From a virus (taxonomy: Duplodnaviria; Caudoviricetes): a stretch of DNA of 64,000 bases. The notes beneath the pieces were generated by a model, which saw only the letters and a program-made list of their open reading frames with translations, made no database searches and was not told where the DNA came from. Position numbers and translations under genes: made by a program. The stretch's first letter is position 1. Each line of letters starts with the position of its first letter. Positions 1-63,330 of the stretch are shown here, piece by piece. Location of the stretch: positions 981-64,980 of IMG/VR virus record IMGVR_UViG_3300042518_000285; one strand, 5' to 3'.

Positions 1-865
1 TGATCTCGTCGCTACCAATAGAGCCTGACATATCGATAGCCACCACGATGCGACCGACCGACTCACCGATCAAGCTAGGCATGTAAACATCTTCACCTAT
101 CCACCGCCGAGACGGACGACGCCATGTCGATTCATCCTTGTCCATACAGAATGACGTAACGAACTCACGCAGTGCCTGACGCCAATCAACCTTCGCTTCC
201 AACGCTTCCTTGATCTCACGTGGCATGTTGCCTTTCATCTTGCCAGCGAGTATCGAGCCTTGGCGGAGAGCCTGATCAATGTCACGTGCTAGAACTTCTT
301 TCTCTTCGCCGCTCATCTCATCAGCGCCGTCCCAGTCGTGGTCATCCAACGATGGCGTATCATCTACTGGTACATCACGCCCCACCTGATCGCCCTTGGT
401 CTTGACATGCACCGAGCCCTTGTCACATTGTTGCTTCAAGTCGTTAAACACACGCTGCGAATCCCAGCCCCGATACTTCGGATCAAGCAAGCCACAGTCA
501 GGCAACTTCACATACTGATCTGTCGGATCTGAATCGTCGATCATCAGGTTAATCACATAGTCACACGCCATGTTTGCCAACTGCGCATGCTCTTTGTATA
601 GATGCTTCCACATGGTTAGATGTCGGAACGCCTTGTGCAAGTTCTCGTGCAGGATCAACGCACGTAGCTCGGGTTCTGACAACTTGTCTGTGAACGCACG
701 ACCATACTTCACGTTGCGACCATCCGTACATGCAGTCTGCACATCATCCTCCACACTTGTTTTACCAAGCATGAAGACGCCTGAATACAGACAGTAGTTC
801 GGGTGTTTCATGAGCCACACATGTGCTCGTTGCACACGCTGCTCGGCAGATAACTTTGTAGCCAT
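1..865 (-). CDS. Metallopeptidase + vWA domain protein (DUF2201-like), 3' end beyond window edge
   Basis: Hand translation from ATG at 865: MATKLSAEQRV...TACTDGRNV...ILHENLHKAFRH (HExxH); ends ...IVVAIDMSGSIGSDEI (vWA MIDAS DxSGS) at the edge. Absent from the ORF track because it is truncated. Confidence 0.85.
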   Translation of the reverse strand, partial: MATKLSAEQRVQRAHVWLMKHPNYCLYSGVFMLGKTSVEDDVQTACTDGRNVKYGRAFTDKLSEPELRALILHENLHKAFRHLTMWKHLYKEHAQLANMACDYVINLMIDDSDPTDQYVKLPDCGLLDPKYRGWDSQRVFNDLKQQCDKGSVHVKTKGDQVGRDVPVDDTPSLDDHDWDGADEMSGEEKEVLARDIDQALRQGSILAGKMKGNMPREIKEALEAKVDWRQALREFVTSFCMDKDESTWRRPSRRWIGEDVYMPSLIGESVGRIVVAIDMSGSIGSDEI

Positions 866-889
866 TTATTAACTCCTGTTAATTTGTTA

Positions 890-1978
890 TCAGAACAACC
901 ACTGGTTTTCCAACGCCCAGTCCTTGAACTCCTTGTTCATCACACAGAACGACTGCTTGTCGGATGACTTCATCACGCTTGTTGCGAACAGGGCTTGCCA
1001 CTCCTTGTCCATACGTTTCAGGTAGTGCATCCATTTGTCTAGCGTGTCCTTGGAAACACGTGTCACCGCAGAGAACACCAAGATACATTTGGCAACCGTG
1101 TCCTCAGGTAGCTTGGCATTTTTCGGATCGTTCAATATCGCATCCCATGATGGCAACTTGTCCACCACAGTGAAGAACGCTTGCATGTCCCGCGCCGCAC
1201 TCTCACCGATAGTCCCAGTCAGCAGAGATATAGTCAGCGCATCACCTAGTTCACTACGTTGTTTGGCAATGAACGACGCCTTCTCCAAACTTCTTGGTGT
1301 AACCACCGCACCGCTACCGGCCCGCGTAGGGTTGAAGATATATACGTTCTCTTTCTGCGACAGATCGGTGTAGCTTGCTAGTGCATGCGGGAACTGCTTG
1401 ACCCACGCAATGATTGTCGGATCAACGTCGTTACCAATTGCCCACTCGATCCACTCATCTGCATCAGGCTTACGCACAGTCACCAAGCACACACGATTCC
1501 GAGCATGCGCTTCCAACATGTCACCCACACCATCTGACATCAAGTTGGTAGTGCCAAACACAATCGATCCCTCAGGCAGGTAGTGGTCACCAATGCGATG
1601 TTCTAGCATCAAGGTCAACAGCACATTCTTGACCGCCTTCATTGCCTTGCCAATCTCGTCAAGCATCACGATCACCGGCTTGCCCTCGTGCATCTTGAAC
1701 CGTGCGTTCGGTGCGAACTTCGTGACTTTGTTAACACCTGTTAACCCGTTCTCCACCACCTCGGTGTATGGCAGGGCAAAGTCACCCAAGTCCAGCAAGG
1801 TACAGTCGATGTACGCAATGGCATACTCGGGATACTGCTTGGCAAGAACTTTCAGCATGGAGGACTTGCCAATCCCCGGCTCACCTTGACCGATCACCGT
1901 CACATCACGCCCCACCTGCCCGATAGCTTTCGCAAACTCAATAAGCGATACGGACTGACCAAAGTTGATTGCACTCAT
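890..1978 (-). CDS. AAA+ ATPase (MoxR/dynein-related type)
   Basis: Walker A GEPGIGKS, Walker B VMLDE, sensor TTN, TPRS motif; adjacent to the vWA partner gene. Confidence 0.85.
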   Translation of the reverse strand: MSAINFGQSVSLIEFAKAIGQVGRDVTVIGQGEPGIGKSSMLKVLAKQYPEYAIAYIDCTLLDLGDFALPYTEVVENGLTGVNKVTKFAPNARFKMHEGKPVIVMLDEIGKAMKAVKNVLLTLMLEHRIGDHYLPEGSIVFGTTNLMSDGVGDMLEAHARNRVCLVTVRKPDADEWIEWAIGNDVDPTIIAWVKQFPHALASYTDLSQKENVYIFNPTRAGSGAVVTPRSLEKASFIAKQRSELGDALTISLLTGTIGESAARDMQAFFTVVDKLPSWDAILNDPKNAKLPEDTVAKCILVFSAVTRVSKDTLDKWMHYLKRMDKEWQALFATSVMKSSDKQSFCVMNKEFKDWALENQWLF

Positions 1979-2029
1979 TTGTTTCTCCTTTTAGGTTGAT
2001 TACTTCTTACTACTACCACTGTAAGACAT

Positions 2030-2058
2030 ATTATAACATAATAGTTACCCTATGTCAA
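2030..2058 (-). promoter_or_regulatory. Consensus sigma70-type promoter for the AAA/vWA operon
   Basis: Minus strand TTGACA-N17-TATAAT with extended TG. Confidence 0.85.
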
Positions 2059-2062
2059 GTAT

Positions 2063-2920
2063 TTAGAAAATGCTCGACTGCGTTCTCTCCATCACTTGGA
2101 CAGGCACTTTGTCATGTATGTCAGACACCTTCTCCACCATCCGATAGATTCGGGATTTCAACAGCTCATACGAAAACTGCATGTCATAAAAAGTTGTAGG
2201 GTAGGTATGCCCACCAATGTTCCGCATGATTGTTTCGGCTATCCGACTATCTAGCGCATTGGTACCATCCCATAGCACCACGCATAGGGCTTTCACATAC
2301 TCTGCATCGTCGCCTGAGCTTGCCATCTCAAGAATCATCGGCTCGTTGTACTCCCGATAGTTGAAGTACCCATCCGGCATCGGGAAGACTGACTTCCTCG
2401 TTTCGTGCATGATCCACCCATCCGACAACTTCATGAATGTCTTAGCCCATTTCAAAAACGGCTGATACGGGGCACGGGCTTCCTTCGCTTTCTCACGATT
2501 GACAACTTGTTTCTGGATGACAACCTCGGATGCCGGTTCCCACCGCCCATCTTCCGTTGGTCGGAATATCAACTCGCCCTCCCTCGGTACGGGGTAGTGC
2601 ATGTACTTGCCGTCGCTGTTTGGCACCATCACCCACAACTTGCCGTTACGTTTGAAGCATTGCCACGGCGAGTGGATGTGGATGAAGTCGGCAGTGGATG
2701 GGGTTTGCCAGCCACCACATTGCAGCCCGATCCGTCCGTCTGGGTAGTACCGAACAACTTGTGTGTGATACAAGACGCAAGCCACAACTGGACCGTCCAT
2801 CTCGATCACCTCCCAATCCCTGCGCCGCTCACCAATGGGTCGGGTTTCACATGCCCTGCCACGTATCGGCTTGATCGAGTCGTGCAGGTTCTTGAACTGC
2901 TCGTAGTAGTTCTTCTTCAT
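2063..2920 (-). CDS. Hypothetical early protein
   Basis: 285-aa ORF, SD AAGGAGG, start overlaps the upstream stop. Confidence 0.8.
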   Translation of the reverse strand: MKKNYYEQFKNLHDSIKPIRGRACETRPIGERRRDWEVIEMDGPVVACVLYHTQVVRYYPDGRIGLQCGGWQTPSTADFIHIHSPWQCFKRNGKLWVMVPNSDGKYMHYPVPREGELIFRPTEDGRWEPASEVVIQKQVVNREKAKEARAPYQPFLKWAKTFMKLSDGWIMHETRKSVFPMPDGYFNYREYNEPMILEMASSGDDAEYVKALCVVLWDGTNALDSRIAETIMRNIGGHTYPTTFYDMQFSYELLKSRIYRMVEKVSDIHDKVPVQVMERTQSSIF

Positions 2921-3354
2921 ACTCCCTCCTTATTAACATCTGTTAATTTAGGGCGTTTCCCAAGCAAGTCCATCTCCATCTCGATACTTCTTGCCACATA
3001 ACTCAACTCCCACCCGTCCTCGCCAAAGTGTTCCTCGGTCACGTCCTCTGAGTTCTCACCGATCCGGCAGAACGCGCCCCTGTACTTACCCTCGTCATCA
3101 TTTAGTTCTTCAAAGAACGCATACAGCTTGTTCACCCCATCGACAGGCTCGTACCCGTCGTACCATTTGACATCCTCGTTGTAGAACACAAAGTTGTCAG
3201 CATCCCAACCACTTGCATCTTTGTACCAATGCGCCTCAAACAGATCGCCCGAGATGATGCCCTTGGTTTTGGCAAGTGCCAGCACCGTAGGTATGTCCGG
3301 TGCATCTGGATCGGTGCGTTGTACCCTGATCCCAACCGTTGATCGATATCCCAT
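2917..3354 (-). CDS. Hypothetical acidic early protein (start revised to MGYRS)
   Basis: SD AGGAG before ATG 3354; the longer ORF-track start overlaps another small ORF. Confidence 0.7.
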   Translation of the reverse strand: MGYRSTVGIRVQRTDPDAPDIPTVLALAKTKGIISGDLFEAHWYKDASGWDADNFVFYNEDVKWYDGYEPVDGVNKLYAFFEELNDDEGKYRGAFCRIGENSEDVTEEHFGEDGWELSYVARSIEMEMDLLGKRPKLTDVNKEGV

Positions 3355-3358
3355 TTTA

Positions 3359-3538
3359 TTAACTCCTGTTAACTTGTTTTGGATTGATTGTTTCGAATGG
3401 CTCATAGTTATCCTCGAACAGATAACACTCCGACATAGCCACGAACCGTGCATACGCCTCATCCATCTGGGCATCCCACACCACTTCGCGGTCTAGGTTA
3501 GCTGCGTCCATCCATTCGTTTAGTGTTGGCTTTTTCAT
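3359..3538 (-). CDS. Small acidic hypothetical protein (59 aa)
   Basis: Hand translation MKKPTLNEWMDAANLDREVVWDAQMDEAYARF...; SD AGGAGG. Confidence 0.65.
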   Translation of the reverse strand: MKKPTLNEWMDAANLDREVVWDAQMDEAYARFVAMSECYLFEDNYEPFETINPKQVNRS

Positions 3539-3571
3539 CTCATCCTCCTATTAACATCTGTTAACTTGTTA

Positions 3572-3778
3572 TCAGGCCAGCACCCATGTCAATTGCAGAG
3601 CTTCTGGCTGCACGTTCAAATACACCCAAGCATCGTTGGCTCCGAGCTTCCTGACATGCACAGAGTCCTTGTTGATGTCGAGCACCTCATACCGATGCTT
3701 GAACCCTTTGTAGTTCTTGCGGATCAAGCTATCGCCGACCTGTACTTCCTTGCCGGTTTTCCTGTCGATTAACTTCAT
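3572..3778 (-). CDS. Small hypothetical protein (68 aa, MKLIDRKTGKEVQVGD...)
   Basis: ATG overlaps upstream TGA; small beta-barrel-like pattern. Confidence 0.65.
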   Translation of the reverse strand: MKLIDRKTGKEVQVGDSLIRKNYKGFKHRYEVLDINKDSVHVRKLGANDAWVYLNVQPEALQLTWVLA

Positions 3779-3861
3779 TGCAGCAGTCCCAAGTATTCGG
3801 AAACCACCATCGCAATCAACACGCAGAAACATATCAGTCCAACAACGTCTAAGTTGTCCAT
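3775..3861 (-). CDS. Small membrane peptide (28 aa)
   Basis: MDNLDVVGLICFCVLIAMVVSEYLGLLQ; coupled to both neighbours, SD AGGAG. Confidence 0.5.
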   Translation of the reverse strand: MDNLDVVGLICFCVLIAMVVSEYLGLLQ

Positions 3862-3965
3862 CAGAAACTCCTAAATAGCATGATGAGCACCGCCAATACT
3901 GCACCGAGTATGGCTCCCAGAAACGCAGCGGCGATTGCCGCCCATTCGTTTGCGTCTAGTTTCAT
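3861..3965 (-). CDS. Small membrane peptide (34 aa)
   Basis: MKLDANEWAAIAAAFLGAILGAVLAVLIMLFRSF; SD GGAGG, ATGA overlap. Confidence 0.55.
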   Translation of the reverse strand: MKLDANEWAAIAAAFLGAILGAVLAVLIMLFRSF

Positions 3966-4237
3966 TTGACGATCCCTCCCTTTTGATTAACACCTGTTAA
4001 CAAATCCCTGTCACTTACGACGATGTAGTTCGACTTGTGCAGGGGCACGACACAATGCTTCACCTTCCGCGCTTCCACCTCGCCGCATGGCATACATAAA
4101 GAACTTATCAGGCGACGCTTTGGTGGGTCAATTTGTGAGCCACATAGACGACAAAAAGTCGTGTCTGTTTTTACGTGTTGGTCTGTTCCGAGTTCTGTTC
4201 CGCTTGGGGCGGCTTTGTTCCAGTCTGAGATACGCAT
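3962..4237 (-). CDS. C4 zinc-finger protein (DksA/TraR-like finger pattern); start uncertain
   Basis: CRLCGSQI...R...LCMPC. Confidence 0.6.
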   Translation of the reverse strand: MRISDWNKAAPSGTELGTDQHVKTDTTFCRLCGSQIDPPKRRLISSLCMPCGEVEARKVKHCVVPLHKSNYIVVSDRDLLTGVNQKGGIVK

Positions 4238-4496
4238 GAAAGACCTTTGAGATCAATGTGTTATGTGAATAAATGCCGGTTGTGTTCCAGTGTTCCGCAC
4301 ATTACACCACCTGCCGAAGGCCACGTTGGTTTACAAACCCATCATGGTTTACATTGTAAACTAGTTCCTCAGGTTTGGGTAGGGGGGGTATATATATGGA
4401 ACAATGGAACAAACACACAAAAAACCCCCAAAACGTAGGCGTACCAACGGTTTTGCCTGTTCCAGCGACTGGAACAACGCGGAACAACGCGGAACA
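4184..4496. repeat. Array of 11 TGTTCC/GGAACA hexamers in both orientations; candidate replication origin
   Basis: TGTTCC at 4184, 4196, 4216, 4283, 4291, 4458; GGAACA at 4398, 4406, 4471, 4481, 4491. Confidence 0.75.
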
Positions 4497-4600
4497 GAGC
4501 CCTCTGCAACATATTGCATTAACATCGGTTAATAAATTGTGCTGCTGCATCATCATCATCAGGGGCTACTATCATCAAAGGGTTGGAAATCACAGGCAAT

Positions 4601-4626
4601 AAAAAACCCCGACCGAAGTCGGGGTT
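4601..4626 (-). terminator. Intrinsic terminator after 4642..5157
   Basis: Minus strand CCCCGAC-TTCG-GTCGGGG-TTTTTT. Confidence 0.9.
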
Positions 4627-4641
4627 GCCAAGTGGGGCGAA

Positions 4642-5157
4642 TTACTTTGCTTTTGCCATTTCCGCCTTTGCCAGATTAAGCGCGGCGAGAACTTTCGGTA
4701 AATCGTATGAGCGCGATTCGGCTTTTTCCAGTCTACCGATCAGCGCGACAACGCGCTCCATATCGACAGTTTCCTCTGATTTTTCGCTTGCGGCGGATTC
4801 TACTTTTTCAGCCGGAAAAGCATATTTGACAACACGCGCAAACATGGTATCAGCAGTTGATCGGGCATCCTTTTTCGCCTGATACTGTACTTTCCACTTT
4901 TCAACACCGGCGGCGTCGAGCGCGTTATATTCTTTGCTACCCTTGCGTGGTAACTCCACAGCGAGCGCGGCGGCGTGGCGTTTGTCGAGCGCGGGTAGCA
5001 CAGCGTCTGCGATGAATTGTGCTTTGATTTCCAGCAACGCCGCTTCCGATCCGAAAAACTCACGCGCACCCGATCCGACAATCTGCCATTTATTAACAGT
5101 GTTGATATCATTGCGAATCGCGTCGATTACATTCTTGACTAATGTTTCGTATTTCAT
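4642..5157 (-). CDS. Hypothetical helical protein, monocistronic
   Basis: 171-aa ORF, SD GAGGTG, own terminator. Confidence 0.8.
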   Translation of the reverse strand: MKYETLVKNVIDAIRNDINTVNKWQIVGSGAREFFGSEAALLEIKAQFIADAVLPALDKRHAAALAVELPRKGSKEYNALDAAGVEKWKVQYQAKKDARSTADTMFARVVKYAFPAEKVESAASEKSEETVDMERVVALIGRLEKAESRSYDLPKVLAALNLAKAEMAKAK

Positions 5158-5292
5158 AACTCACCTCATTCAGTTGATTGTAGGAAATATGCTCGGCGCG
5201 TTTCGCCTTGCATGACTACAATGTATCAAACTATTCTAAATCTCAAAGCATTTTCTGAAATTTATTAAGTAGTGTTAATAAATTCAATTTTG

Positions 5293-5561
5293 ACAACCCC
5301 ACCGTACCCCCACCCCCCGCTATTGGCTGTTGGTACCATCGCATGCCTTGCCTTAGTAATCTGCGCACCCGATCACAAAATCCCAAAAGGGTTACACTAA
5401 CCAAGGGGGTCGCAGCTTGTTAGTTTATTAACAAGTCGTCAGGGATAGGCAAGTGACCCCCACCCCCCTCTAAAATCTGCTGGACTAATCTAAATATCAA
5501 AATAGAAAAACACCCCCCTTGCCTTTTTGGGTCCCCTACAACCCCACCGGGGGGTATATAT
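5293..5561. repeat. C/G-run-rich intergenic region with short direct repeats before terS
   Basis: ACAACCCCACCG at 5293 and 5538; ACCCCCACCCCCC at 5306 and 5456; GGGGGGTATATAT at 5549 (also at 4383). Confidence 0.6.
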
Positions 5562-5589
5562 TGACAACTTTGTACAAGGTGGTTATCGT
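5561..5589 (+). promoter_or_regulatory. Sigma70-type promoter for packaging/structural genes
   Basis: TTGACA-N17-TATCGT with extended TG. Confidence 0.6.
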
Positions 5590-5624
5590 CGCGCACATCT
5601 GGGCCACAAACAGCTACGGAACAC

Positions 5625-6224
5625 ATGCCTATACTTGCCACGCCTGAAGTGGGTATCCCACTTCCCTTCGATACGACACCGGAGGAAATTGACGATTTTC
5701 GTCAGAAGGCTCATGCACTTTTTGAAACGGTGCAAGACCTAATAGGTCTAGGAGCGCAGGTAGACATCTCCCCCGAAGACAAAGCGGAATCGCACCGCAT
5801 CTTCTCCAATAAAAAACTCCCCCCGGCAAAGCAACTGACGCCCGGCACCATCCTGAACCTAGAAGCAATCCTGAACGAGTGGGATCAAGAAGTACTAGAC
5901 GTTTCACGTCGGCTTCGTAATTACGTGACCAACAAGTTGATCGTTGAGTCTGCTGATCCAGATCCTCGCCAGCGCATGAAGGCACTGGAAAACTTAGGGC
6001 GGATTGCGGGAGTTGGGCTATTCTCTGAGCGGATTGATATCAGCATCACACACCGCACCGTAAAAGATATTGAGACAGATCTCGTGAAGACCTTGGAGCT
6101 GTACGGTGGAGGTGTTGAAGAGGTCGCGTTCGAGGAAGTGCCTAAGAGTATTGGGGATATTGACGTAGATGCAGAGTTGTCAAACGAAGGGGAACCCGTA
6201 GATGGACCCGGAACTACTTCGTAG
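5625..6224 (+). CDS. terS: Probable terminase small subunit
   Basis: Directly upstream of and overlapping terL; 'RMKALENLGRIAGVGLFSERIDI' resembles the TerS oligomerisation segment. Confidence 0.6.
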   Translation: MPILATPEVGIPLPFDTTPEEIDDFRQKAHALFETVQDLIGLGAQVDISPEDKAESHRIFSNKKLPPAKQLTPGTILNLEAILNEWDQEVLDVSRRLRNYVTNKLIVESADPDPRQRMKALENLGRIAGVGLFSERIDISITHRTVKDIETDLVKTLELYGGGVEEVAFEEVPKSIGDIDVDAELSNEGEPVDGPGTTS

Positions 6225-42009: not shown

Positions 42010-45000
42010 ATGATTATCAATCTGCCGAAGCTAGGGCCGGTACGTTTTGATGACAACCTAACGGAAGCGCAACTCAACGCACGGGTTAACGAGTTAGCCA
42101 AAAAATACGATTTCAAAGTTCCTACCCCTGAGTTTGGGCTAGGGGAGACTTTTACGCGTGCCGTAAAACGCGGGACAAAACAACTTGGCATCCTTGGGGG
42201 CGACGTTCTCCCCGCTATGGTCGGTAAAGGTCTTGGTTTTGAAGATTACGCTGCCAGACAAATGGAAGAAGCTGCGGTGTCCCAGCAAGAGATTGCTAGG
42301 CAGCGCCCGCCTATTTTCGAATCCTACAAACAAGTTGAGTCGCCATATCAAGCACTACAGTTTGGTATAGAAGTTATTGGCGAACAGATTCCAAACATCG
42401 CCACGTCGCTCATACCCGGCTTTGGGTTGGGGGCAGTAACTGGTCGTGCTGCGTTAACTTCAACAGGTAAAGCATTAGCAACACAAGCTGCCGAACGTGG
42501 TCTAGCGGGCGAAGCCGCTACCGCATTTGTAGCCGAGGGCATGAAACGTGCCGCCCCGCAGATTGCTGCTAAAGCGCAGACAGGTCAGAACGTCGGTATA
42601 TTTTTAGGCTCCTACGCCCAGAACGCTCCTGAAATCTTCCAGAACATCGTCCAAGAAACTGGGCAGATGGAAGTTGGTACGTCCCTGCTATTCGGTGCAG
42701 GTGCTGCTGCTTTAGATTCCATATTACCTGCGCAACTTGCAAGGCAGTTAACTGGCCCAATGAAGGCCGGTATCGTAGAGAAAGTGCTAGAGAAATCTGG
42801 CATGGATCGTGGGATATTGCGTAGCACTACTTCCGGCTTGATCAAGGGCACTGCGGGCGAAGGTCTTACTGAAGGCGCACAAGAAGCACTAAGCATCGCT
42901 GCTGAAAAGTTTGTTGCCGATAACCCTCAAGTCTTTGGTAGTAAAGAATGGGATCGGATCATGGAAGCCAGCGTTCGCGGTGCGATTGCTGGTGGTGGGT
43001 TCGGTGTTGTTGGCGGTTCAGTTGAGCGCATGCGTGAAAGAGCGGCAGACTTACGTGCTCAAGCCGAACAAGCCGAACGTGAGCGTCGTATCGAGGATGC
43101 GGCTCGTCTGCGCAAAGAAGTAGAAGACGCAGAACAGCAAATAGCTGAGATGGAGCGGCATGTTGCTGGAAGGGATTCTGAAAAAGAACAGGGGCGATTA
43201 GCGGAGATGGAGTTAGGTCCAGCTTCCCGTCTCCCCGAAGAACAAATACGACGATTTGAAGCGCTCGCTGCCGGTAAACCCGCTGAGTTTTTTGAACCTC
43301 AAAAAACTGCTAAGAGAGCCGCAGAAAGTGCCAAGAACAAACTAGGTGGCAAGCAACTGGAGCTGTTCGGGCCAGAAGGTAAACTAACTAAAGAAGCTGA
43401 GAAAGCCGCAACCGCTGATGAAAAGCGTGCGGTAAACGTCGCTCGCCAACAAGCCAAGAAAGAAGCAGCGGAGCTAAAGCAGTATCAAGACAGCCTGAAG
43501 AAGTTCTTAGGGGCTAAGCAACTTGTGCTGCCCGGCATGTCGCCAGAAGAGGTCGCTGCCGCTCAGAAACAACAAGCCGAGCTTGAGGAACAGATTAAAA
43601 CCACTGGGCAGGGCGACTTGTTTACGGGCATGCCTGCTGCTCCTAAAACGACTGATGAAGAAGCAACAAAAGCATTAAAAATATCGCCACAACCTAAACC
43701 TGAAGAGTTTGCTAATTCGCCCATAGAAGGATACACGTTCGAAATTCCGGGGGCTAAGGCTTCTTTAATTCATGATGCGGAAAAAAGTCCAAACATATGG
43801 AAAGTAGCTAGACTACGTGCCGCAAAGCCGGGGCAGGGTGCGGGTTCAGAATTATTAAATAAAATTGTTGATTGGGCGGATGAAAATAACGCAACCCTAA
43901 CTCTCATTGCGGCGGCGGATACCCCGGAAGGAAAAAAATTATCGCAAGAGAAGTTGGTTGAATTTTATGAGCGAAGAGGTTTTGAACCGGACGAACAAGC
44001 TCGTAGAAGAATAGAAGCAGGAGTGGAGTACAACACTCTTGTTCGATACCCAAAAACTAAACCGGGGCAAATTGATACTACTGCGCCCGTAGAAGAAGCT
44101 ATTGCCGAGCCTACCAAAGTAGAAGCACCTACTGGGGTAGAGGGTACTATCATCAGTAATACCAAGGAAGGGTTAGCCGCTCTTGGTAAACAACTTGGTA
44201 TTGGTCGTACGGCAAAGATATTACGTCCTGATGGCCCACTGGCTGGCAAAGATCTTTCTGATCCTGCACAGGCTGCTGAAGTTAGGCGCGTGTTGGAGGC
44301 GTATGCTTCTGGTAAGCCCGCTGAAGGCGCGGCATCTAAGATTGAAGAATTCCTACTGCGGCCTGAGTTCGAAGCCGCGCCAATGGAGGTGCCAAGTGAG
44401 CCAACTGCACAATTTGACATCGGAAGAAGTGAGCCTAGCGTTCCAAGTGATATCACTGATGGAGCAGAGCAACTTGGAGATCGAGGTGCCGGAGAGCTTG
44501 CAGAACCTATCAGCACAGGATTGGGCGAGACTGGACCTGCTGCTGGAGATATTAATGTCGGAGAAGAAGCTGCTGGGCGTCCACTAGGCGTCAAAGAAAC
44601 CAAAGATGTAGCTAGAGCCGAAGCAGCTACAGAAGAGGCGGTGCGTCAGCAAGCGGACTTTGTTACTAAAAATGACGAGCGCACAAACAATATCCTGACT
44701 GGTCTGCTACGTGAAGCGGCTGCTGCCGAAGGTATTGATCCTAAGTTTCTACCGTCTGAAGACCTGCGCGGTACACCAGAACATTCGTATTTGCGTCTGC
44801 CTAGCCTGATCAATGAGTATCTACGGCTTCGTGACATTCTGGGCATACCCCCAACGACTCCTGCTGAACGGGCGCAAGCGGCACGCAACCAGCAAGAGTT
44901 TGAAATTATCCGTGATGCCATCCTGCAAAGCGACCCTAACATGCCTCAGTTCTTACAGAACATGGAGGCTGCGACCCCGGCGCAACGAGAACAAGTGTTG

Positions 45001-48000
45001 TCGCAAATTAACCGTGAAGCGGTTGCTCAGTTTGCACCGGTTATCGAGAAGCGCATCGCAAGCCTAAAGCTTGAGGAAGAAGAGCGAGAAGCAGCTAGAC
45101 CCAAAGCTGAGCCTACCGAAGGTAGTTTAGATCGACTTGCTGCAATCAAAGCCGCATCTGAAAAAATGTCAGGTGAGGTTGCAGCGACCGGTAAAGAAGC
45201 GGAACGTAATACAAAATCTATTTTAAAAGCTTACGAAAAAAAGTTCGGTAAAAAGTTGTTCCTGCCCGTGCATCGTGGACCTGACTTGTCCGACGCGGGC
45301 CGCGCACTGGTTGAAAGTGGCGACCTAAAAGGTGTTATTGATTACCTCAGAAATTCAGTTAAGAGCAAAGTTGTACAGCAGATTCTTAACAAGATCAAAA
45401 CACTCAACCTTGGCACTAAGATTGTTGTCGGGCCGGTTGAAGGCAATCAGGCTGGCTCTTTCGACCCGCGCACTAACACCATAACCATCAACCCCGAGAT
45501 GGGGATGAACGAGCACACGCTGCTGCATGAACTCATGCACGCTGCCATATCCCATGTGCTACGCAACCCTAACCTGCCAGTCACCAAGCAGCTAACGTCG
45601 TTGTTCACCCAGATCCAGAACCAGATGGGTGCGGCGTACGGTGCCCAAGACTTGCAGGAGTTTGCTGCCGAACTGGTAAGTAACCCTGAGTTCCAAGCTC
45701 TGCTCAAGACCATCAAGACCCCTAAGAGTCAGAACATGTTTGTGCGGTTTATGCAAACACTGGCGGAGTTTTTTGGGTTTGCGAAAGGCACCAACGCCTA
45801 CGACAAAGGCTTGAAGTTGGTCAGCGACGCTATCGATATATCCACAGATATTATTCCTTCCCCTGCCGATGTATTGTTCATGGGCACTCCTAACGGCGCA
45901 GCGATGGGTCTTGGTGTGGTTGGGCGTATTGGGCAGACGATGCCTTCGCTCGCTGGTAGGACTATAGAGGAAACCAAAAACTACTTGTCGAATATGCCGG
46001 GAGATACACAATCCCTCGCAATGGGGCTTCTGCGTTTGGACAACATCAACACCATCTACGGTAAAGAACTACCGTCTCTCCAGAAACTTCTTGATGCATT
46101 GGAGAAACGTAATGGCATGCAGGAAAAGTACATCAAGCGCATCAACGAGAACTATAAGCGCTTTTTGGATGTAGAAAGCCGCCACCCGCAAGCCATGCAG
46201 CGTATGAACGACATGGCGATTGACGCACGACGCGAACAAGTCGATATACTCGACCCAAAGTTTAAGCCAAGCGCGACGCAACTGGCGCAATACAACCGAC
46301 TGAAGAGCGTCTACAACGGACTGCCCGATGATGTTAAAAAAGTCTACAGAGACATCCGTGGTGAATACGATGCGGCTATCAACGAGTACGAAGATATTCT
46401 GCTTAACTCCGTCCAAGACCCGTCGGTACGTCGTAAATTAAAAGCTCAGTATGAAGCACGTAAACGGCAGGTTGGCTATATCCCGTTCCTGCGCCGAGGC
46501 GACTTCTGGGTTGAGTACGATGAGAATGGTGAGCGTGCAGTACAAGCGTTCCAATCTCAACGTGAGCGTCAGATGTTTATCGACAGCCAACTCAAAGGTA
46601 AGTCGTACAAGATTTATAAGAACATAAACGAAGCGACATTCAATCAGAGCACACTGCCTTCCTCGTCGTTTATCGTCGGGTTGATGGGCGAGTTGAACAA
46701 GCAGGGTGCGAGTGACCAGCTCAAGCAGAACGTATATCAGTCATACCTAGCGTTATTCCCAGCCGAGTCTTTGGCAAAGAACTTCATGAAGTCCGAAAAT
46801 TTTCTGGGCATGGAGCGAGACATCGTGCGCGGGTATGGCGAGACGATGATCAAGTGGGCACGCAAGCTGTCATCCAGTAAGTACAACCCTGAGATTGACC
46901 GTGCGTTGAGCGAAATAGCCACACAGGGAAGTGAAGCATCTACCAAGCCTGACGGTGCTGGGGCTTACGCCGCTGCTCAGAATGTAATGGATCAGGCAAG
47001 CTTCCTACATAATCCAACATACGGAAAACTTGTTAGCGCCACCACAACACTTAGCTACTTTGCTCACATCGCGGGTAACGTCTCGTCGGCTCTAATTAAC
47101 TTGACCACGCTTCCGATGTTCTCTTGGTCAATTCTTGGTGCCAAGTTTGGGTTTGATCAGTCTTTCCTTGCTCTGTCGTCAGCTTCCAAAACCACAATCG
47201 ACTATATCTTTAACAATAAGATACCAACTAAGTACGCTAAGTTGTTTGATGTGCTGAATGATCACGCGCAGTTGGAACACACGATGGCCCGTGAGGTGCT
47301 GGAAGGGCGTAGACAAACAACTTCTGAGTTCATCGGTATCAAGGCTCGGATCATGGACGGCGTGTCCATCCCGTTTAGTAAAGCAGAAGTACTTAACAGA
47401 GGCGCAACGGCTATTGCTGCTTACGATCTGGCACGGGCTGGTAGTTCAGCGATGGGTATAAAGCCCATGAACGAACAGGATGCGATCCGCTATGCCTTGA
47501 ACACCGTCAAGGAGATCAACACTTCTGGCCTGTCCGCAACTGCTCCGCGCTTTATGCAGCATCCGGCTGGGCGTGTGTTCTTTACGTTCAAGTCGTTTGT
47601 GTGGAATAGTGCATTCGTGGTGGGTCGTGCCTTTCATCAGGCCGTAAAAGGTGAATCCCCTGCGGTACGCAAAGAAGCCTTCCGGCAACTGATTGGTATC
47701 TATGGCATGGCGATGGCGTTTGCTGGTATCAAAGGTCTGCCGTTCATGGGGGCTGTATCTACACTGGCAACCATTATCAATTCACTGCTTGGTGACGATG
47801 ATGAGCCGTATGACTTCGATGTCATGATGCGTAGCTGGACAGACGAGTTGTTCTACAAAGGTCTGGTCAACTACGCTACCAATCTGGAAATCGCTAATCG
47901 TGTTGGTGTGGCTAACGACCTAATCTTCCGCGATGACCCCAAGGGGGTTGCAGAAAATGGCTACGTATTGACCGCCATACAGCAAGCATTTGGTCCTGCC

Positions 48001-48534
48001 GGGGCATTTGCAGCAAGTGTGGAAGATGGCGCTAAGCAGGTGTCGGAAGGTAATATCGTGCGCGGTATCGAGGCGATGTTGCCTACATTCTTGAAAAATA
48101 TACTCAAGGCGACGCGCTATGCTACCGAAGGTGTCACAAACCGTAAAGGCGAGTTAATTATAGATGACATCTCCAACTACAACGTAGTTATGCAAATCGT
48201 CGGGTTCTCTCCTGCCAACTTGTCTAATGTGTACGAAGAGATTGGCATGAAGAAGGACTTTGAGCGCAAAGTAATGGCACAGCGTAGCAAGCTGCTCAAT
48301 AAGTACGACATGGCACGTCGGGCTGGAGACTCAGATTTGATGACAGAGGCACTAGAAGAGATCGGCGAGTACAACGAGAAGCGCAAAGATCCTAAGGCCA
48401 AGATCACTCAGGACACATTGAATCGATCAGTCAGGGCACGAGAGGCTGCTGAAAGAGATAGCGTCAACGGCGTTCGGTTCAATAAGAACCTAAGAACTGA
48501 GATTGACGATCTGTTGGAAGAGTACGAGGAGTAA
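42010..48534 (+). CDS. Large polyvalent ejection protein (GNAT + zincin + PLxRFG-like region)
   Basis: PGQGAGSELL...FYERRGF (GNAT); LLHELMH...EFAAE (zincin); YIPFLRRGDFWV. Confidence 0.8.
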   Translation: MIINLPKLGPVRFDDNLTEAQLNARVNELAKKYDFKVPTPEFGLGETFTRAVKRGTKQLGILGGDVLPAMVGKGLGFEDYAARQMEEAAVSQQEIARQRPPIFESYKQVESPYQALQFGIEVIGEQIPNIATSLIPGFGLGAVTGRAALTSTGKALATQAAERGLAGEAATAFVAEGMKRAAPQIAAKAQTGQNVGIFLGSYAQNAPEIFQNIVQETGQMEVGTSLLFGAGAAALDSILPAQLARQLTGPMKAGIVEKVLEKSGMDRGILRSTTSGLIKGTAGEGLTEGAQEALSIAAEKFVADNPQVFGSKEWDRIMEASVRGAIAGGGFGVVGGSVERMRERAADLRAQAEQAERERRIEDAARLRKEVEDAEQQIAEMERHVAGRDSEKEQGRLAEMELGPASRLPEEQIRRFEALAAGKPAEFFEPQKTAKRAAESAKNKLGGKQLELFGPEGKLTKEAEKAATADEKRAVNVARQQAKKEAAELKQYQDSLKKFLGAKQLVLPGMSPEEVAAAQKQQAELEEQIKTTGQGDLFTGMPAAPKTTDEEATKALKISPQPKPEEFANSPIEGYTFEIPGAKASLIHDAEKSPNIWKVARLRAAKPGQGAGSELLNKIVDWADENNATLTLIAAADTPEGKKLSQEKLVEFYERRGFEPDEQARRRIEAGVEYNTLVRYPKTKPGQIDTTAPVEEAIAEPTKVEAPTGVEGTIISNTKEGLAALGKQLGIGRTAKILRPDGPLAGKDLSDPAQAAEVRRVLEAYASGKPAEGAASKIEEFLLRPEFEAAPMEVPSEPTAQFDIGRSEPSVPSDITDGAEQLGDRGAGELAEPISTGLGETGPAAGDINVGEEAAGRPLGVKETKDVARAEAATEEAVRQQADFVTKNDERTNNILTGLLREAAAAEGIDPKFLPSEDLRGTPEHSYLRLPSLINEYLRLRDILGIPPTTPAERAQAARNQQEFEIIRDAILQSDPNMPQFLQNMEAATPAQREQVLSQINREAVAQFAPVIEKRIASLKLEEEEREAARPKAEPTEGSLDRLAAIKAASEKMSGEVAATGKEAERNTKSILKAYEKKFGKKLFLPVHRGPDLSDAGRALVESGDLKGVIDYLRNSVKSKVVQQILNKIKTLNLGTKIVVGPVEGNQAGSFDPRTNTITINPEMGMNEHTLLHELMHAAISHVLRNPNLPVTKQLTSLFTQIQNQMGAAYGAQDLQEFAAELVSNPEFQALLKTIKTPKSQNMFVRFMQTLAEFFGFAKGTNAYDKGLKLVSDAIDISTDIIPSPADVLFMGTPNGAAMGLGVVGRIGQTMPSLAGRTIEETKNYLSNMPGDTQSLAMGLLRLDNINTIYGKELPSLQKLLDALEKRNGMQEKYIKRINENYKRFLDVESRHPQAMQRMNDMAIDARREQVDILDPKFKPSATQLAQYNRLKSVYNGLPDDVKKVYRDIRGEYDAAINEYEDILLNSVQDPSVRRKLKAQYEARKRQVGYIPFLRRGDFWVEYDENGERAVQAFQSQRERQMFIDSQLKGKSYKIYKNINEATFNQSTLPSSSFIVGLMGELNKQGASDQLKQNVYQSYLALFPAESLAKNFMKSENFLGMERDIVRGYGETMIKWARKLSSSKYNPEIDRALSEIATQGSEASTKPDGAGAYAAAQNVMDQASFLHNPTYGKLVSATTTLSYFAHIAGNVSSALINLTTLPMFSWSILGAKFGFDQSFLALSSASKTTIDYIFNNKIPTKYAKLFDVLNDHAQLEHTMAREVLEGRRQTTSEFIGIKARIMDGVSIPFSKAEVLNRGATAIAAYDLARAGSSAMGIKPMNEQDAIRYALNTVKEINTSGLSATAPRFMQHPAGRVFFTFKSFVWNSAFVVGRAFHQAVKGESPAVRKEAFRQLIGIYGMAMAFAGIKGLPFMGAVSTLATIINSLLGDDDEPYDFDVMMRSWTDELFYKGLVNYATNLEIANRVGVANDLIFRDDPKGVAENGYVLTAIQQAFGPAGAFAASVEDGAKQVSEGNIVRGIEAMLPTFLKNILKATRYATEGVTNRKGELIIDDISNYNVVMQIVGFSPANLSNVYEEIGMKKDFERKVMAQRSKLLNKYDMARRAGDSDLMTEALEEIGEYNEKRKDPKAKITQDTLNRSVRAREAAERDSVNGVRFNKNLRTEIDDLLEEYEE

Positions 48535-59065: not shown

Positions 59066-59066
59066 A

Positions 59067-59366
59067 TCAGATCTCCGCTAGGTATTTGACAAGTTCGCTC
59101 GTTTTATTTGTGGGTTTCAACTTCTTGATACGTAGGTTCTCATCATCACCAACACGTGAGAGCAACCCAGACTGCACCAACCGCTTCATCCGCGCATGCG
59201 TCGTAGCTTCAGACGCACCGTCGAAATTTTTTATGAACTGCATGGTCAGCACGTCACCCTGCTTGTTCATCTCGATCACAGAGTTAAGGATCAGTAGGTC
59301 GGTGCTATCGACTTTGAACTTGTCGCGCACGTTGTTTAGGGCTTGCGCCAATTTATCTAACTTCAT
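59067..59366 (-). CDS. MarR-like winged-helix protein
   Basis: SEATTHARMKRLVQSGLL.R..D..NLRIK. Confidence 0.7.
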   Translation of the reverse strand: MKLDKLAQALNNVRDKFKVDSTDLLILNSVIEMNKQGDVLTMQFIKNFDGASEATTHARMKRLVQSGLLSRVGDDENLRIKKLKPTNKTSELVKYLAEI

Positions 59367-59575
59367 TTGTTTCTCCTGACACGGTAATAGTAGTAGCGAT
59401 CTTCGCCTCGGAATTTAAACTCGATCACATCAAGTTCTTTTAGCATGACGATGTACCGCTCTGCGCTACGGATGCTTCGCTTCAGTATCCGAGCAACATC
59501 TTTTACGTTAAACAAATACCTGCCCTGCAACTTCCGCTGCAACTTAACCAACATACCTTTGCTTGGCTGGCTCAA
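59363..59575 (-). CDS. Winged-helix/HTH protein
   Basis: VKDVARILKRSIRSAERYI. Confidence 0.65.
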   Translation of the reverse strand: MSQPSKGMLVKLQRKLQGRYLFNVKDVARILKRSIRSAERYIVMLKELDVIEFKFRGEDRYYYYRVRRNK

Positions 59576-59769
59576 ACCTTCACCTTGTAAAACTTAATGC
59601 TGCCCTGCTTGGTTACTTCTACCAACCCAATTGATCCAAAGAAATCCAGTGCCCTCTTTGCATGTGTCTCACTGACGGTAAGCGCTTTCACAACTTGCTT
59701 GACGGTTACAGGCGCCTTCTTATCAGTGACATACGTAAAGATCTTTTCGTCCTTTGGATCAATCGCCAT
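59572..59769 (-). CDS. Winged-helix protein
   Basis: VTVKQVVKALTVSETHAKRAL..F...GLV. Confidence 0.65.
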   Translation of the reverse strand: MAIDPKDEKIFTYVTDKKAPVTVKQVVKALTVSETHAKRALDFFGSIGLVEVTKQGSIKFYKVKV

Positions 59770-61432: not shown

Positions 61433-61760
61433 AATTTTTTAAAAAATTAAGAAAGACCCCATCGTTCAATTTATTAACGTCTGTTAACAAAACTTTTAGT
61501 TTGTCGAGTCCCGTTTCATCAACGGCGACTGCTATGCCCCCCGCCGATGATAGTTCTCGCAAATTCTTTACTTGAAGCGCAGTGGGGTTATTGCCGTTTG
61601 CCTTGCACTCAATACCGATAAATTTACCATGTAAGCAAGCGACAATATCAGGAACTCCTGACGATCCGTAACCATGCGTAGCTGGCATGAAGTGGTAGGC
61701 TCCATGCGCAGCTAATAACTTCTTCACCTTATCCTTAACTTTGCTTTCAGGTGCAGGCAT
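61419..61760 (-). CDS. VRR-NUC domain nuclease
   Basis: PE..VK, GVPDI, FIGIECKA, PTALQ, AGG. Confidence 0.85.
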   Translation of the reverse strand: MPAPESKVKDKVKKLLAAHGAYHFMPATHGYGSSGVPDIVACLHGKFIGIECKANGNNPTALQVKNLRELSSAGGIAVAVDETGLDKLKVLLTDVNKLNDGVFLNFLKNFEGG

Positions 61761-62161: not shown

Positions 62162-62430
62162 TTGCACTCTTCCTTTATTTGTTGAAATTCGTCATACGTA
62201 ATGTAGATAACAATTATGTTGTCTTGCAGTCTTCGTCCTATAAATTCTCCTTTGGTAGATTTATTAACATCTGTTAACTTGAGCATAGCGAACCGTTCAA
62301 CTACGAACTTAGGCGCAACATGAAACTCTGCGATCCAAACCGTTTCAAGTGACTCGTTATCTCGCGCAACGATGCTAATCGAATCGCCGCGCTCATCCAT
62401 AGTTACCCAGATAACAAATCTTCGATCCAT
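62158..62430 (-). CDS. Hypothetical protein
   Basis: 90 aa, SD GAGGA, own promoter. Confidence 0.7.
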   Translation of the reverse strand: MDRRFVIWVTMDERGDSISIVARDNESLETVWIAEFHVAPKFVVERFAMLKLTDVNKSTKGEFIGRRLQDNIIVIYITYDEFQQIKEECK

Positions 62431-62451: not shown

Positions 62452-62480
62452 AATTTATAAACATACTCTAACATTGTCAA
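62452..62480 (-). promoter_or_regulatory. Sigma70-type promoter
   Basis: TTGACA-N17-TAAATT. Confidence 0.7.
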
Positions 62481-63296: not shown

Positions 63297-63330
63297 CACA
63301 CTCTCCTTATTAACAGGTGTTAACTTATTG

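Follow-up and report, generated by a model that had tools for sequence, protein, structure and literature searches.

The early operon of this uncultured phage carries an array of 14-base palindromes, TTAAC-N4-GTTAA, that is confined to one stretch, occupies defined positions at gene junctions and behind promoters, is polar to transcription, and is exchanged for other palindromes in related clades. We tentatively favour, with confidence a little short of even, the reading that these are recognition sites for a phage-encoded, probably dimeric DNA-binding protein that would act as a polar roadblock on the early operon.

The window, the whole stretch analysed here, comprises 64,000 nt (981-64980 of a virus record 64,980 bases long). 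It contains 10 exact copies of the palindrome versus 0.05 expected, and 0 of 100 shuffles of the window reached at least 10. An eleventh copy lies outside the window (record 633-646), giving 11 in the whole record. The enrichment is limited to the exact class because allowing up to two mismatches returned 25 matches versus 29.9 expected. The original prediction listed seven copies on the left and three at 61-63 kb, and all ten are exact. The ~55 kb gap that it placed between them is real, with no exact match from 4532 to 61474. Its variant at 5265 is likewise as described: TTAAGTAGTGTTAA, with one mismatch, lies within the inverted repeat AATTTATTAA-N6-TTAATAAATT. This variant corresponds to the relatives' first site, which adjoins a G-rich tract. 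The claimed restriction of the left cluster to the early region holds as confinement but not as a cluster of its own. The record ends (1-417 and 64564-64980) share 96% identity over 417 b, which makes the genome circular or circularly permuted and joins the "left" and "right" clusters into one stretch of ~7.6 kb, or ~8.4 kb counting the 5265 variant. This stretch lies on the minus-strand early operon.

Over the first 8 kb of the operon the palindrome precedes most genes; it sits at gene junctions, mostly a few bases 5' of the Shine-Dalgarno sequence (SD). The flanks had been called oriented, usually with TAA on the minus strand; across the full record, TAA directly follows the palindrome on that (coding) strand in 7 of 11 sites and T in 10 of 11. 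In 2 of 11 sites of this phage, and in most sites of some relatives, the palindrome is centred on the SD AGGAG, which is at a working distance from the ATG; the element is therefore certainly transcribed.

Palindromes and associated features of the early operon (window coordinates; aa, amino acids)
Feature	Coordinates	Strand	Context
Palindrome TTAACAGGAGTTAA (minus-strand reading)	869..882	unstranded	3 nt before ATG (865) of DUF2201/vWA-like gene; central AGGAG is the SD of this gene
Palindrome in AAA ATPase gene, variable loop, encodes LTGVN	1731..1744	unstranded	
Palindrome	2933..2946	unstranded	3 nt before GGAGG SD of 285-aa gene (start 2920); translated by upstream ORF as LTDVNKEGV, then stop
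Palindrome	3359..3372	unstranded	Last TAA is stop codon of 59-aa gene; centre AGGAG is SD of next gene (ATG ~3354)
Palindrome	3551..3564	unstranded	2 nt before SD of 59-aa gene (start 3538); 8 nt past TGA of 68-aa gene
Palindrome in 3' end of zinc-finger gene (LTGVNQKGGIVK, then stop)	3987..4000	unstranded	Before small ORF starting ~3964
Palindrome TTAACCGATGTTAA (minus strand), non-coding DNA	4519..4532	unstranded	Just past terminator of 171-aa gene; ~280 nt before zinc-finger gene
One-mismatch variant in 10-6-10 inverted repeat	5265..5278	unstranded	~108 nt upstream of 171-aa gene start
Last palindrome of array, 3' end of VRR-NUC/Hjc-like gene (LTDVN)	61474..61487	unstranded	
Palindrome within 90-aa ORF (LTDVN)	62264..62277	unstranded	~175 nt downstream of promoter-like site
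Palindrome	63310..63323	unstranded	2 nt before SD of 265-aa gene; 8 nt past TGA of DUF3150 gene
Promoter-like site, perfect TTGACA-17-TATAAT with TG	2030..2058	-	Before ATPase gene
Promoter-like site, TTGACA-17-TAAATT	62452..62480	-	Before 90-aa gene
Intrinsic-terminator-like hairpin and T run	4605..4626	-	Ends transcription unit of 171-aa gene
First early gene, 171 aa, all-helical, not assigned to a family	4642..5157	-	Between 5265 and 4519 sites
SH3/Tudor-like beta-barrel protein, 68 aa, candidate binder	3572..3778	-	
AAA (MoxR-like) ATPase gene	890..1978	-	

Several palindromes are translated as LT(D/G)VN. These peptides arise because the motif can be translated without a stop in a single frame (TTA ACA GNN GTT AAN); the other two contain TAA. 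Whether the DNA motif imposes the peptide was checked in the ATPase, as had been suggested. LTGVN sits there in a loop of variable length, and the peptide at that place tracks the local DNA motif, so the motif imposes the peptide. Among 31 ATPase genes of type A, the palindrome type of this phage, 21 have only a leader site, five only the internal loop site, none both and five neither; the five internal cases belong to one subclade. In this phage the leader of the promoter at 2030..2058 has no palindrome, and the internal 1731 site follows ~290 nt downstream. Some sites lie 150-290 nt within genes, distant from any start codon. A site 250 nt within a gene is able to stop transcription, whereas occlusion of a ribosome-binding site is impossible from there.

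The ATPase gene served as the anchor for retrieving 80 related IMG/VR loci. At least one TTAAC-N4-GTTAA occurs in 38 of these; the 42 without it carry other multi-copy palindromes at the same junctions, such as TAAACA-N1/2-TGTTTA and TACTGTC-N-GACAGTA. Ten palindrome types, half-site hybrids included, occur across the 80 loci, and the ATPases of the phages that carry them are 67-97% identical. Phages of this group have 5-14 copies in one block, and a single stretch of 7.3-11.1 kb contains every site of a record in each of the whole or partial records compared (12 of 12); the reversed-pattern control for the relatives' records gave 0. Whichever type a phage has, the same conserved genes carry it at their start: the ATPase (55/79), the vWA gene (54/72), the 285-aa gene (45/71), the DUF3150 gene (39/63) and the 266-aa gene (27/58), all counts being drawn from related phages and not independent. 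Further down the operon, no type-specific palindrome was found at the start of VRR-NUC (0/60) or the DNA polymerase (0/30). Different palindromes in the same places point to a probable fast-evolving phage-encoded regulator and not to a host factor.

Across the types the arms are invariant and the centre is variable. The symmetry takes in bases unable to pair in a hairpin, namely CA..TG (types A and B) and TC-N-GA (type C; 114 sites, ~2 bits of information), and type I has no spacer at all. Identical half-sites are separated by N2 to N5 between clades and by N3 or N4 within type-B genomes, a variation that is unusual for a rigid dimer. Type J is a half-site hybrid that is kept in every copy. 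Several types repeat the entire cassette of palindrome, spacer and SD, and in types F, H and I cassettes of 35-40 nt are near-identical within a genome.

Of 517 sites, 232 have a predicted start no more than 30 nt downstream, versus 484 of 8100 random positions (7.5x enriched). At 60 of 116 strong sigma-70-like promoters inside the arrays a site is centred at +20 to +100, 37 of the 60 at +40 to +60, and in relatives the sites follow perfect TTGACA-17-TATAAT promoters at ~+40 to +60. Some sites precede the nearest promoter (-16 to -62). Asymmetric type-A variants are strongly polar, with 47 facing the direction of transcription versus 4 opposite, and transcription meets their perfect half-site first. 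The common variants TTAAC-N4-GTTCA and GTTTA break a stem pair. Mean minimum free energies of the hairpins at 37 C are -3.1 (A), -2.7 (B), -1.2 (E) and -0.8 (I) kcal/mol, the value for type I equalling that of shuffled sequence.

We propose that the phage encodes a sequence-specific protein that would bind double-stranded DNA, probably as a two-fold symmetric dimer. Its proposed sites, the palindromes, occupy the leader transcribed from each strong early promoter, together with most junctions of the first ~8 kb, and bound protein would most likely halt or slow host RNA polymerase that is already elongating. Such a polar, stoperator-like roadblock would silence or shut off the early block as a unit. 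Co-evolution of site and binder would explain why each clade has its own palindrome, and the sites could become recombination joints because they are the sole sequence common to otherwise unrelated early-gene cassettes. A homodimer alone does not explain the conserved half-site hybrids of type J or the polarity. Among the readings first offered, operators or roadblocks for a phage repressor fits best, given the palindrome switches at orthologous junctions, the single early stretch and the polar variants. Against it, neither a classical immunity repressor nor an integrase was found among the phage's genes, and the setting is therefore not that of temperate phages with stoperators.

The main rival is an RNA-level operator in the early mRNAs, adjoining each ribosome-binding site and serving a phage translational repressor (T4 RegA-like) or a site-specific endoribonuclease that would process early messages or turn them off. 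We regard it as rather unlikely. The association with SDs and starts fits such a role as well, and the SD-bearing centres, the positions in 5' leaders, the polar variants and the cassettes repeated whole favour it. However, the predicted hairpins are marginal, type I folds no better than shuffled sequence, frequent variants would put U.C or U.U mismatches in the stem, and the symmetry reaches unpairable bases. Sites upstream of the nearest promoter also argue against it, those deep within genes are explicable by the cleavage version only, and none of the early proteins matched an RNA-binding family. The placement behind promoters, weak hairpins, unpairable symmetric bases and internal sites count for a DNA roadblock, as does the lack of any RNA polymerase found among the phage's proteins. 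That absence also bears on a very unlikely alternative, in which the sites would be promoters of a phage RNA polymerase or sigma factor that has escaped recognition. T7-like phages have clade-specific promoters and N4 has hairpin promoters, and the sites here are polar, clade-specific, 5' of genes and limited to the early region; the 2174-aa virion protein has no family match over its first ~1300 residues. But no plausible protein showed an RNA polymerase family or a DxDGD-type motif, the sites come after perfect sigma-70 promoters, and many sites hold the SD of the downstream gene, which a transcript starting after the element would lack.

The sites could also be recombination linkers or mobile regulatory cassettes, comparable to the promoter-stem-loop cassettes of T4-type phages, whose short shared homology at borders would let early genes be shuffled between co-infecting relatives. 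We consider this distinctly improbable as the explanation. Copy-and-paste concerted evolution would account for clade-specific sequence without a binder, and copying readily explains the hybrid in every type J copy and the near-identical cassettes of types F, H and I. Similarity between same-type relatives, in nucleotide comparisons whose ends are not independent, stops no more than 20 nt from site centres in 60 of 268 cases for type A (12.7 expected), 15 of 37 for type B (2.0 expected) and 28 of 159 for type C (8.8 expected). The region upstream of the ATPase is hypervariable, with many small orphan ORFs flanked by sites. Breakpoints are, however, to be expected at gene borders in any case, and for the Cluster O dyad repeats discussed below the authors saw few repeats, if any, at points of rearrangement (PMC4351075). 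Linkers would not need palindromes, a fixed promoter distance or a place in a protein-coding loop, and the array ends abruptly after the 266-aa gene/VRR-NUC region though gene content varies further on. Least credible, and disfavoured, is the earlier suggestion of a host CRP/FNR-family factor coupling early expression to host physiology. The 14-bp type-A consensus is identical to the published PrfA box (TTAACA-N2-TGTTAA), and 5-4-5 palindromes are typical of the family, but the match is one of sequence resemblance only. Ten palindromes share the same junctions among close relatives, and the sites lie past transcription starts, not at activator positions. The host range differs too: PrfA is a Listeria protein, whereas the Rz-like spanin encoded by the phage suggests a Gram-negative host, and among cultured phages its nearest relatives by terminase have Pelagibacter, a gammaproteobacterium and cyanobacteria as hosts.

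No binder was identified. The conserved winged-helix proteins (70-aa and 99-aa families) do not vary with palindrome type, and the 171-aa, 285-aa and 266-aa families gave no DNA-binding family or solved relative. The 171-aa protein was also considered as a relative of phiC31 repressor c and set aside: the language-model resemblance (0.76) is weak, and 0 of 32 members of the 171-aa family matched that Pfam family. A candidate is the 68-aa SH3/Tudor-like barrel, whose family is present in 29 type-A loci (its own included) and in the hybrid type J locus and in no other type; the SH3/Tudor-like matches are weak (E >=0.03).

Repeated elements of this kind have several precedents. In Streptomyces phage phiC31 the conserved inverted repeats are multiple palindromic operators of the early region bound by the phage repressor, which resembles the arrangement here, but phiC31 is temperate with a known repressor. 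The start-associated sequences of Cluster K mycobacteriophages are short repeats directly upstream of start codons that include the SD, again like the elements here. Stoperators of Cluster A mycobacteriophages (L5, Bxb1) likewise follow promoters, occupy the short gaps between genes of operons and are polar to transcription; an elongation block has been proposed, and from one related phage group to another the consensus changes along with its binder. They too are many copies of a 13-14 bp site (PMC6550527, PMC9283540). They are asymmetric, monomer-bound and spread genome-wide, whereas here the palindromes are near-perfect and keep to 7-11 kb of the early operon, and no immunity repressor or integrase was found.

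The 17-bp dyad repeats of Cluster O mycobacteriophages share invariant inverted arms, a variable centre, many copies and a mainly intergenic or gene 5'-end location, in phages for which a temperate lifestyle is again not obvious; a dimeric DNA binder is predicted by the authors, who assign no function and mention the Cluster K sequences (PMC4351075). Unlike the sites here, which are strongly start-associated, in one block and of 10 types among relatives, these repeats exceed 30 copies through the genome, are not closely tied to translation starts and keep a single sequence type across five genomes (PMC4351075). T1-like phages (TLS) have 21-nt intergenic repeats with no assigned function, which the authors compare with stoperators; in contrast to the palindromes here, these are asymmetric direct repeats that precede start codons by ~76 nt and also occur outside any early block (PMC11447400).

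The window holds ten exact copies of TTAAC-N4-GTTAA, whereas in 100 dinucleotide-preserving shuffles of the same sequence the mean count is 0.05 and ten was never reached. At up to two mismatches there are 25 matches in the window against 29.9 expected; relaxed matches are not enriched and therefore only the exact class is special. The relaxed search recovers a variant that sits within a 10-6-10 inverted repeat. The 64,980-base virus record, which is rated complete, adds an eleventh exact copy, and the reversed pattern used as a control has no match over the whole record. The first 417 bases of the record are 96% identical to its last 417. It follows that the genome is circular or circularly permuted and that the contig was broken at an arbitrary point, so the two clusters of palindromes first described form one array of ~7.6 kb. 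The other ~56 kb of the record are free of exact palindromes. The original observation of exact palindromes restricted to the early region, and of a longer inverted repeat around the variant, is thus borne out, also against shuffled controls; its two clusters are both real but not separate. The end repeat falls within the DUF3150 gene, so that a naive reading yields a falsely duplicated 427-aa protein; two strain variants were probably joined when the assembly was closed into a circle.

Coordinates of features in the window, the virus record and related loci
Feature	Position (window unless stated)	Strand	Remark
Exact TTAAC-N4-GTTAA copies	869, 1731, 2933, 3359, 3551, 3987, 4519, 61474, 62264, 63310
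Eleventh exact copy	record 633-646
Palindrome variant	5265
End repeat	63584-64000		other copy in the 980 bases preceding the window
68-aa protein	3575-3778	-
Zinc-finger protein	3962-4237	-
Structural and lysis genes	5.6-48.5 kb	+
2174-aa virion protein	42010-48534	+
Low-GC island	58000-60000
340-aa ORF	58043-59065
32-nt inverted repeat	4182-4225 and 4467-4498
GGGGGGTATATAT	4383-4395, 5549-5561	+
C-rich tracts ACCCCCACCCCCC	5306, 5456
Extended half-sites ATTTATTAACA	5088-5098, 5424-5436		171-aa gene 5' end; divergent non-coding region
Tandem small ORFs, type D relative	L035:5400-7700	+
Sigma-70 region-4 protein	L073:7974-8297	+
ATPase region of Spiribacter salilacus	scaffold L210, 537789-558805

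PHROGs and Pfam annotation indicates a podovirus-like phage. The plus strand encodes terminase, portal, major head protein, tail-fibre proteins, an endolysin, an Rz-like spanin, DNA-ejection and internal virion proteins and a 2174-aa polyvalent virion protein. The latter has an LPD39 domain and a DarB-like C-terminal region, and its residues 1 to ~1300 match no family. The early and replication genes on the minus strand comprise the 171-aa gene, a zinc-finger gene, small ORFs, the 285-aa gene, an AAA ATPase, a DUF2201/vWA-like gene, DUF3150 and a 265-aa gene. They also include genes for a VRR-NUC/Hjc-like nuclease, small HTH proteins, DNA polymerase A, an exonuclease, a SNF2-type helicase and a primase. 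A phage RNA polymerase was found neither by PHROGs and Pfam nor by a metal-site motif scan, and the annotated genes include no integrase and no identifiable phage immunity repressor. An island of low GC (42.5% vs about 50%) spans most of a 340-aa ORF with no family match and homologues in only three type-A loci; this ORF is probably a recently acquired moron.

A nucleotide search of window positions 1-6000 against cultured phages returned no match. By terminase (45-55% identity), the closest cultured phages are the Pelagibacter phages HTVC027P/HTVC023P, DSL-LC04, Pag-Yong1 and Planktothrix/Synechococcus phages, and no cultured relative of the ATPase exceeds 28% identity. Bases 1-50000 of HTVC027P lack the ATPase module and any multi-copy palindrome. 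A bacterial chromosome, represented by a Spiribacter salilacus scaffold, carries a 53%-identical AAA ATPase followed by ORFs similar in size and order, indicating that the ATPase occurs outside this phage group. This region has no palindrome array, and a scan of bacterial genomes for the ATPase gave no host and no evidence of a prophage.

With the ATPase as the query, 119 related IMG/VR loci were confirmed; the analysis used 80 of them, each with flanks of up to 10 kb per side. Exact TTAAC-N4-GTTAA occurs in 38 of the 80 (229 sites in 1.15 Mb) and is absent from 42, in which a palindrome scan uncovered other multi-copy palindromes. Together with this genome, the 81 loci bear ten palindrome types, and their ATPases are 67-97% identical. 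Type-specific palindromes stand at the starts of the same genes: 285-aa (45/71), ATPase (55/79), vWA (54/72), DUF3150 (39/63) and 266-aa (27/58). None stands at the start of VRR-NUC (0/60), a 70-aa gene (0/42) or DNA polymerase (0/30). When 12 whole or partial records were searched with their own pattern (A, B or C), the sites of all 12 were confined to one stretch of 7.3-11.1 kb, and the reversed control pattern gave 0 matches. We conclude that the palindrome array is real and strongly non-random, and that its function is conserved while its sequence switches.

Palindrome types among the loci related by their AAA ATPase
Type	Palindrome	Loci
A	TTAACA-N2-TGTTAA	37 and this genome
B	TAAACA-N1/2-TGTTTA	18
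C	TACTGTC-N-GACAGTA	16
D	TTATCA-N2-TGATAA	1
E	TTAAAC-N2-GTTTAA	1
F	CTAAA-N3-TTTAG	2
G	TAACA-N-TGTTA	2
H	TACAC-N4-GTGTA	1
I	TAAAAACGTTTTTA	1
J	hybrid TTATC-N4-GTTAA	1

The types track clades, with half-site hybrids between them. Many phages with few exact sites that were first labelled type A use TTAAC-N4-GTTCA or TTAAC-N4-GTTTA, the latter joining a type-A left half to a type-B right half. The perfect half lies upstream with respect to transcription in 47 of 51 distinct asymmetric contexts; two of the four reversed ones are the first site beside the G-rich tract of the regulatory region. Read on the sense strand, the single centre base of type C is A in the sites at junctions and T in the first sites. 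All five copies in type J are one and the same half-site hybrid, and the copy within the ATPase is inverted. The type D relative has tandem small paralogous ORFs starting M(x)(x)KLSxDNKW, with the palindrome just after the start codon and not before the Shine-Dalgarno sequence (SD).

The coding (minus)-strand consensus over 228 distinct type-A sites is aatttaTTAACAGgtGTTAATAAat. Its arms are invariant (2.0 bits) and its centre variable (0.3-1.1 bits), and the copies within one genome have identical arms. Seven of the 12 sites of this genome (11 exact and the variant) lie 2-25 nt upstream of a start codon. In two sites a central AGGAG doubles as the SD, 7-8 nt from ATG, and one site provides the stop codon of the upstream gene. 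Other sites are read through as LT(D/G)VN, in the sole stop-free frame. In the ATPase, the site lies in a loop of variable length that is bounded by LPYTE and VTKF; in most homologues this loop is shorter and contains no site. The loop peptide follows the local motif, being LTGVN here, LTDVN in locus L004, IDNSVN in type G and LTGDN in type J. The alignment of ATPase homologues thus answers the original question for this protein: the DNA motif imposes the peptide. The zinc-finger protein and its homologues keep a C-terminal L(T/K)G(V/I)N-x-KGG across palindrome types, and in type A the palindrome itself encodes the LTGVN of this peptide.

When genes are modelled as ORFs of at least 50 aa, 232 of 517 distinct sites lie at most 30 nt upstream of a predicted start. 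For random positions drawn from these spans the figure is 484 of 8100 (6%), which gives the sites a 7.5-fold excess. A looser SD-plus-start test, which 36% of random positions passed, was discarded. Among 31 type-A ATPase genes, 21 have only a leader site, five only an internal loop site, five neither and none both (Fisher p = 0.0015). The five genes with an internal site form one subclade, so this exclusion is only suggestive.

Within the arrays lie 116 distinct strong sigma-70-like promoters, and many match TTGACA-17-TATAAT perfectly. The nearest site is centred +20 to +100 from the estimated start for 60 of these promoters (37 at +40 to +60, 15 at +20 to +40) and at -80 to 0 for 12, and most sites are not close to any promoter. 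This placement makes them elements of transcribed leaders or junctions rather than promoter operators of the classical kind. CRP/FNR activator sites are centred about -41.5 or -61.5, upstream of or overlapping the -35 element, which is not where these palindromes lie. The suggestion that a host CRP/FNR- or PrfA-type factor reads them agrees with the sequence itself: the published PrfA-box consensus string tTAACAnnTGTtAa is a 5-4-5 palindrome, and seven of the 11 exact sites in the record read TTAACA-N2-TGTTAA. Yet a host-set motif should be stable among phages of similar hosts, and the motif here switches between close relatives. A host factor is unlikely because ten types occur among phages with such similar ATPases, and the CRP/FNR/PrfA claim is left unsupported. 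The CtrA box, TTAA-N7-TTAAC, does not fit in spacing because the sites here are TTAA-N6-TTAA.

Operators or roadblocks, as originally proposed, are the best explanation, held tentatively at somewhat under even confidence. The sequence features favour, though not strongly, sites that a symmetric protein may recognise as duplex DNA. The main rival, an RNA-level operator, appears rather unlikely. It would account for the association of the sites with ribosome-binding sites, some having the SD as their centre, for the polarity of asymmetric sites and for the same half-sites recurring at variable spacing (N2 to N5). It sits poorly with arms that are identical among copies around variable centres, and with symmetry that reaches bases unable to pair in a hairpin, namely CA..TG (A, B, D, G), TC-N-GA (C) or arms with no spacer (I). 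Predicted RNA hairpins are marginal, with minimum free energies at 37 C of -3.1 (A), -2.7 (B), -1.2 (E) and -0.8 kcal/mol (I), against -1.0, -0.7, -0.7 and -0.7 kcal/mol for shuffled sequences; type I is no better than shuffled. Frequent variants disrupt a stem pair, and some sites lie upstream of promoters or deep within genes. Nor does the array look like an RNA hairpin for processing or stabilisation, whose stem would persist through compensatory changes and differ in sequence between copies. A primary role as a recombination linker remains a rival as well. Similarity between same-type relatives ends within 20 nt of site centres in 60 of 268 cases for type A (12.7 expected), 15 of 37 for type B (2.0 expected) and 28 of 159 for type C (8.8 expected) at the nucleotide level, counts that are not independent and fall at gene borders, where breakpoints are expected anyway. 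We read breakpoints at sites as a by-product, since the sites are the only sequence common to unrelated cassettes.

Arrays of repeats between phage genes, such as the Cluster O and T1/TLS repeats, have been described several times. To our knowledge, binders and functions are known only for stoperators, which share one orientation relative to transcription, occur in both genome arms and block elongation when the repressor is bound. In the parts of the reports consulted, stoperators are asymmetric, spread genome-wide and bound by the immunity repressor (PMC6550527, PMC9283540). They are the closest system in their working: the array here likewise places many copies of a short site between operon genes, and its consensus co-varies with phage subgroup. 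It differs in not extending over the whole genome, and probably also departs from the pattern of asymmetric sites with a known repressor as their binder; its core is palindromic, though asymmetric variants face one way and the centre base of type C shows a bias. In Cluster O mycobacteriophages, a 17-bp dyad repeat without a known function is present in more than 30 copies, and dimer binding to it is predicted in the accessible portion of the report (PMC4351075). There too, invariant inverted arms flank a variable centre and the many copies are mostly not at promoters. According to the same portion, the Cluster O repeats are genome-wide and not tied to starts, whereas the array here is confined, start-associated and, above all, switches sequence between clades. 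The 21-nt intergenic repeats of the T1-like phage TLS, 18 in number and oriented, likewise have no known function and are likened to stoperators by the authors in the excerpt consulted (PMC11447400). The portions of the pelagiphage literature searched make no mention of promoter, palindrome or (in this sense) motif, and a literature search for such arrays returned nothing on this phage group.

Covariation, comparing identity within and between types at matched ATPase distance, gave no sharp signal for the binder. The largest drop is in the zinc-finger protein (47% to 28%), but the C-terminus of this protein is conserved across types. In the conserved 70-aa and 99-aa winged-helix families, the recognition helices do not track palindrome type. 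Further candidates among the small early proteins are a 134-aa winged-helix protein and a 68-aa Cro/CI-like HTH protein. Several families are type-restricted, which could reflect shared ancestry: a 68-aa barrel (A, J), a ~65-aa protein of type C that looks ribbon-helix-helix-like by eye, sigma-70 region-4 proteins (C, some A) and several in B. Types D and J, when compared, had nothing specific in common. The 68-aa protein occurs in 29 type-A loci including this one and in type J, in no other type, and is absent from three type-A loci with full upstream sequence. Its predicted fold is a small SH3/Tudor-like barrel (pLDDT 94.1) with weak PDB matches (E at least 0.03). The stand-alone sigma-70 region-4 proteins are ~108 aa long (Pfam Sigma70_r4, E 6e-10), with 15 matches across type-C loci and five type-A loci; type-C loci also have paralogues some 10 kb further downstream. 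The half-sites TTAACA, TAAACA and CTGACA resemble the -35 hexamer read by sigma region 4. The 171-aa first gene has sites on both flanks and its own terminator, and encodes a predicted all-helical protein (pLDDT 92.9) whose structure has no match in the PDB. A weak Atlas lead (0.76) to the phiC31 repressor c family was not confirmed for it, and profiles of the 171-aa, 285-aa, 266-aa and 68-aa proteins gave nothing usable against PDB and Pfam.

We speculate, doubtfully, that these apparently non-temperate aquatic podophages possess an immunity-like system in which a fast-diversifying regulator and a polar palindrome array gate the whole first-entering early block. If so, clades with different palindromes would be mutually 'hetero-immune', and a phage already resident, or first to arrive, could shut down the early operon of superinfecting relatives only if they share its type. 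The hybrids TTAACA..TGTTTA and TTATC..GTTAA would then be caught intermediates of specificity switching. About ten palindromes and their hybrids at the same junctions of otherwise collinear genomes constitute a natural experiment, so that comparative genomics and a few binding assays could identify the binder. Such work could show a joint specificity change of a protein and 5-14 dispersed sites, as well as early-block control in a lytic phage using host RNA polymerase and perfect consensus promoters. The palindromes also mark early-region cassette borders and are usable for typing these uncultured phages.

Other motifs also occur in the window. Two copies of GGGGGGTATATAT are present, where 0.03 are expected. 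One immediately precedes the late operon on the plus strand and overlaps a promoter-like TTGACA-17-TATCGT; the other is in the early non-coding region and faces opposite to the early operon. The sequence may belong to a late promoter or be another regulatory motif. GGAACA/TGTTCC repeats make up a 32-nt inverted repeat (81% complementary) that encloses ~240 nt of non-coding sequence in the interval from the 4519 site to the zinc-finger gene. C-rich tracts recur at 5306 and 5456, and relatives have G-rich tracts beside the first palindrome; this region might serve as an origin, in packaging or in regulation. Two isolated extended half-sites, ATTTATTAACA, both lie outside the stretch of full palindromes.
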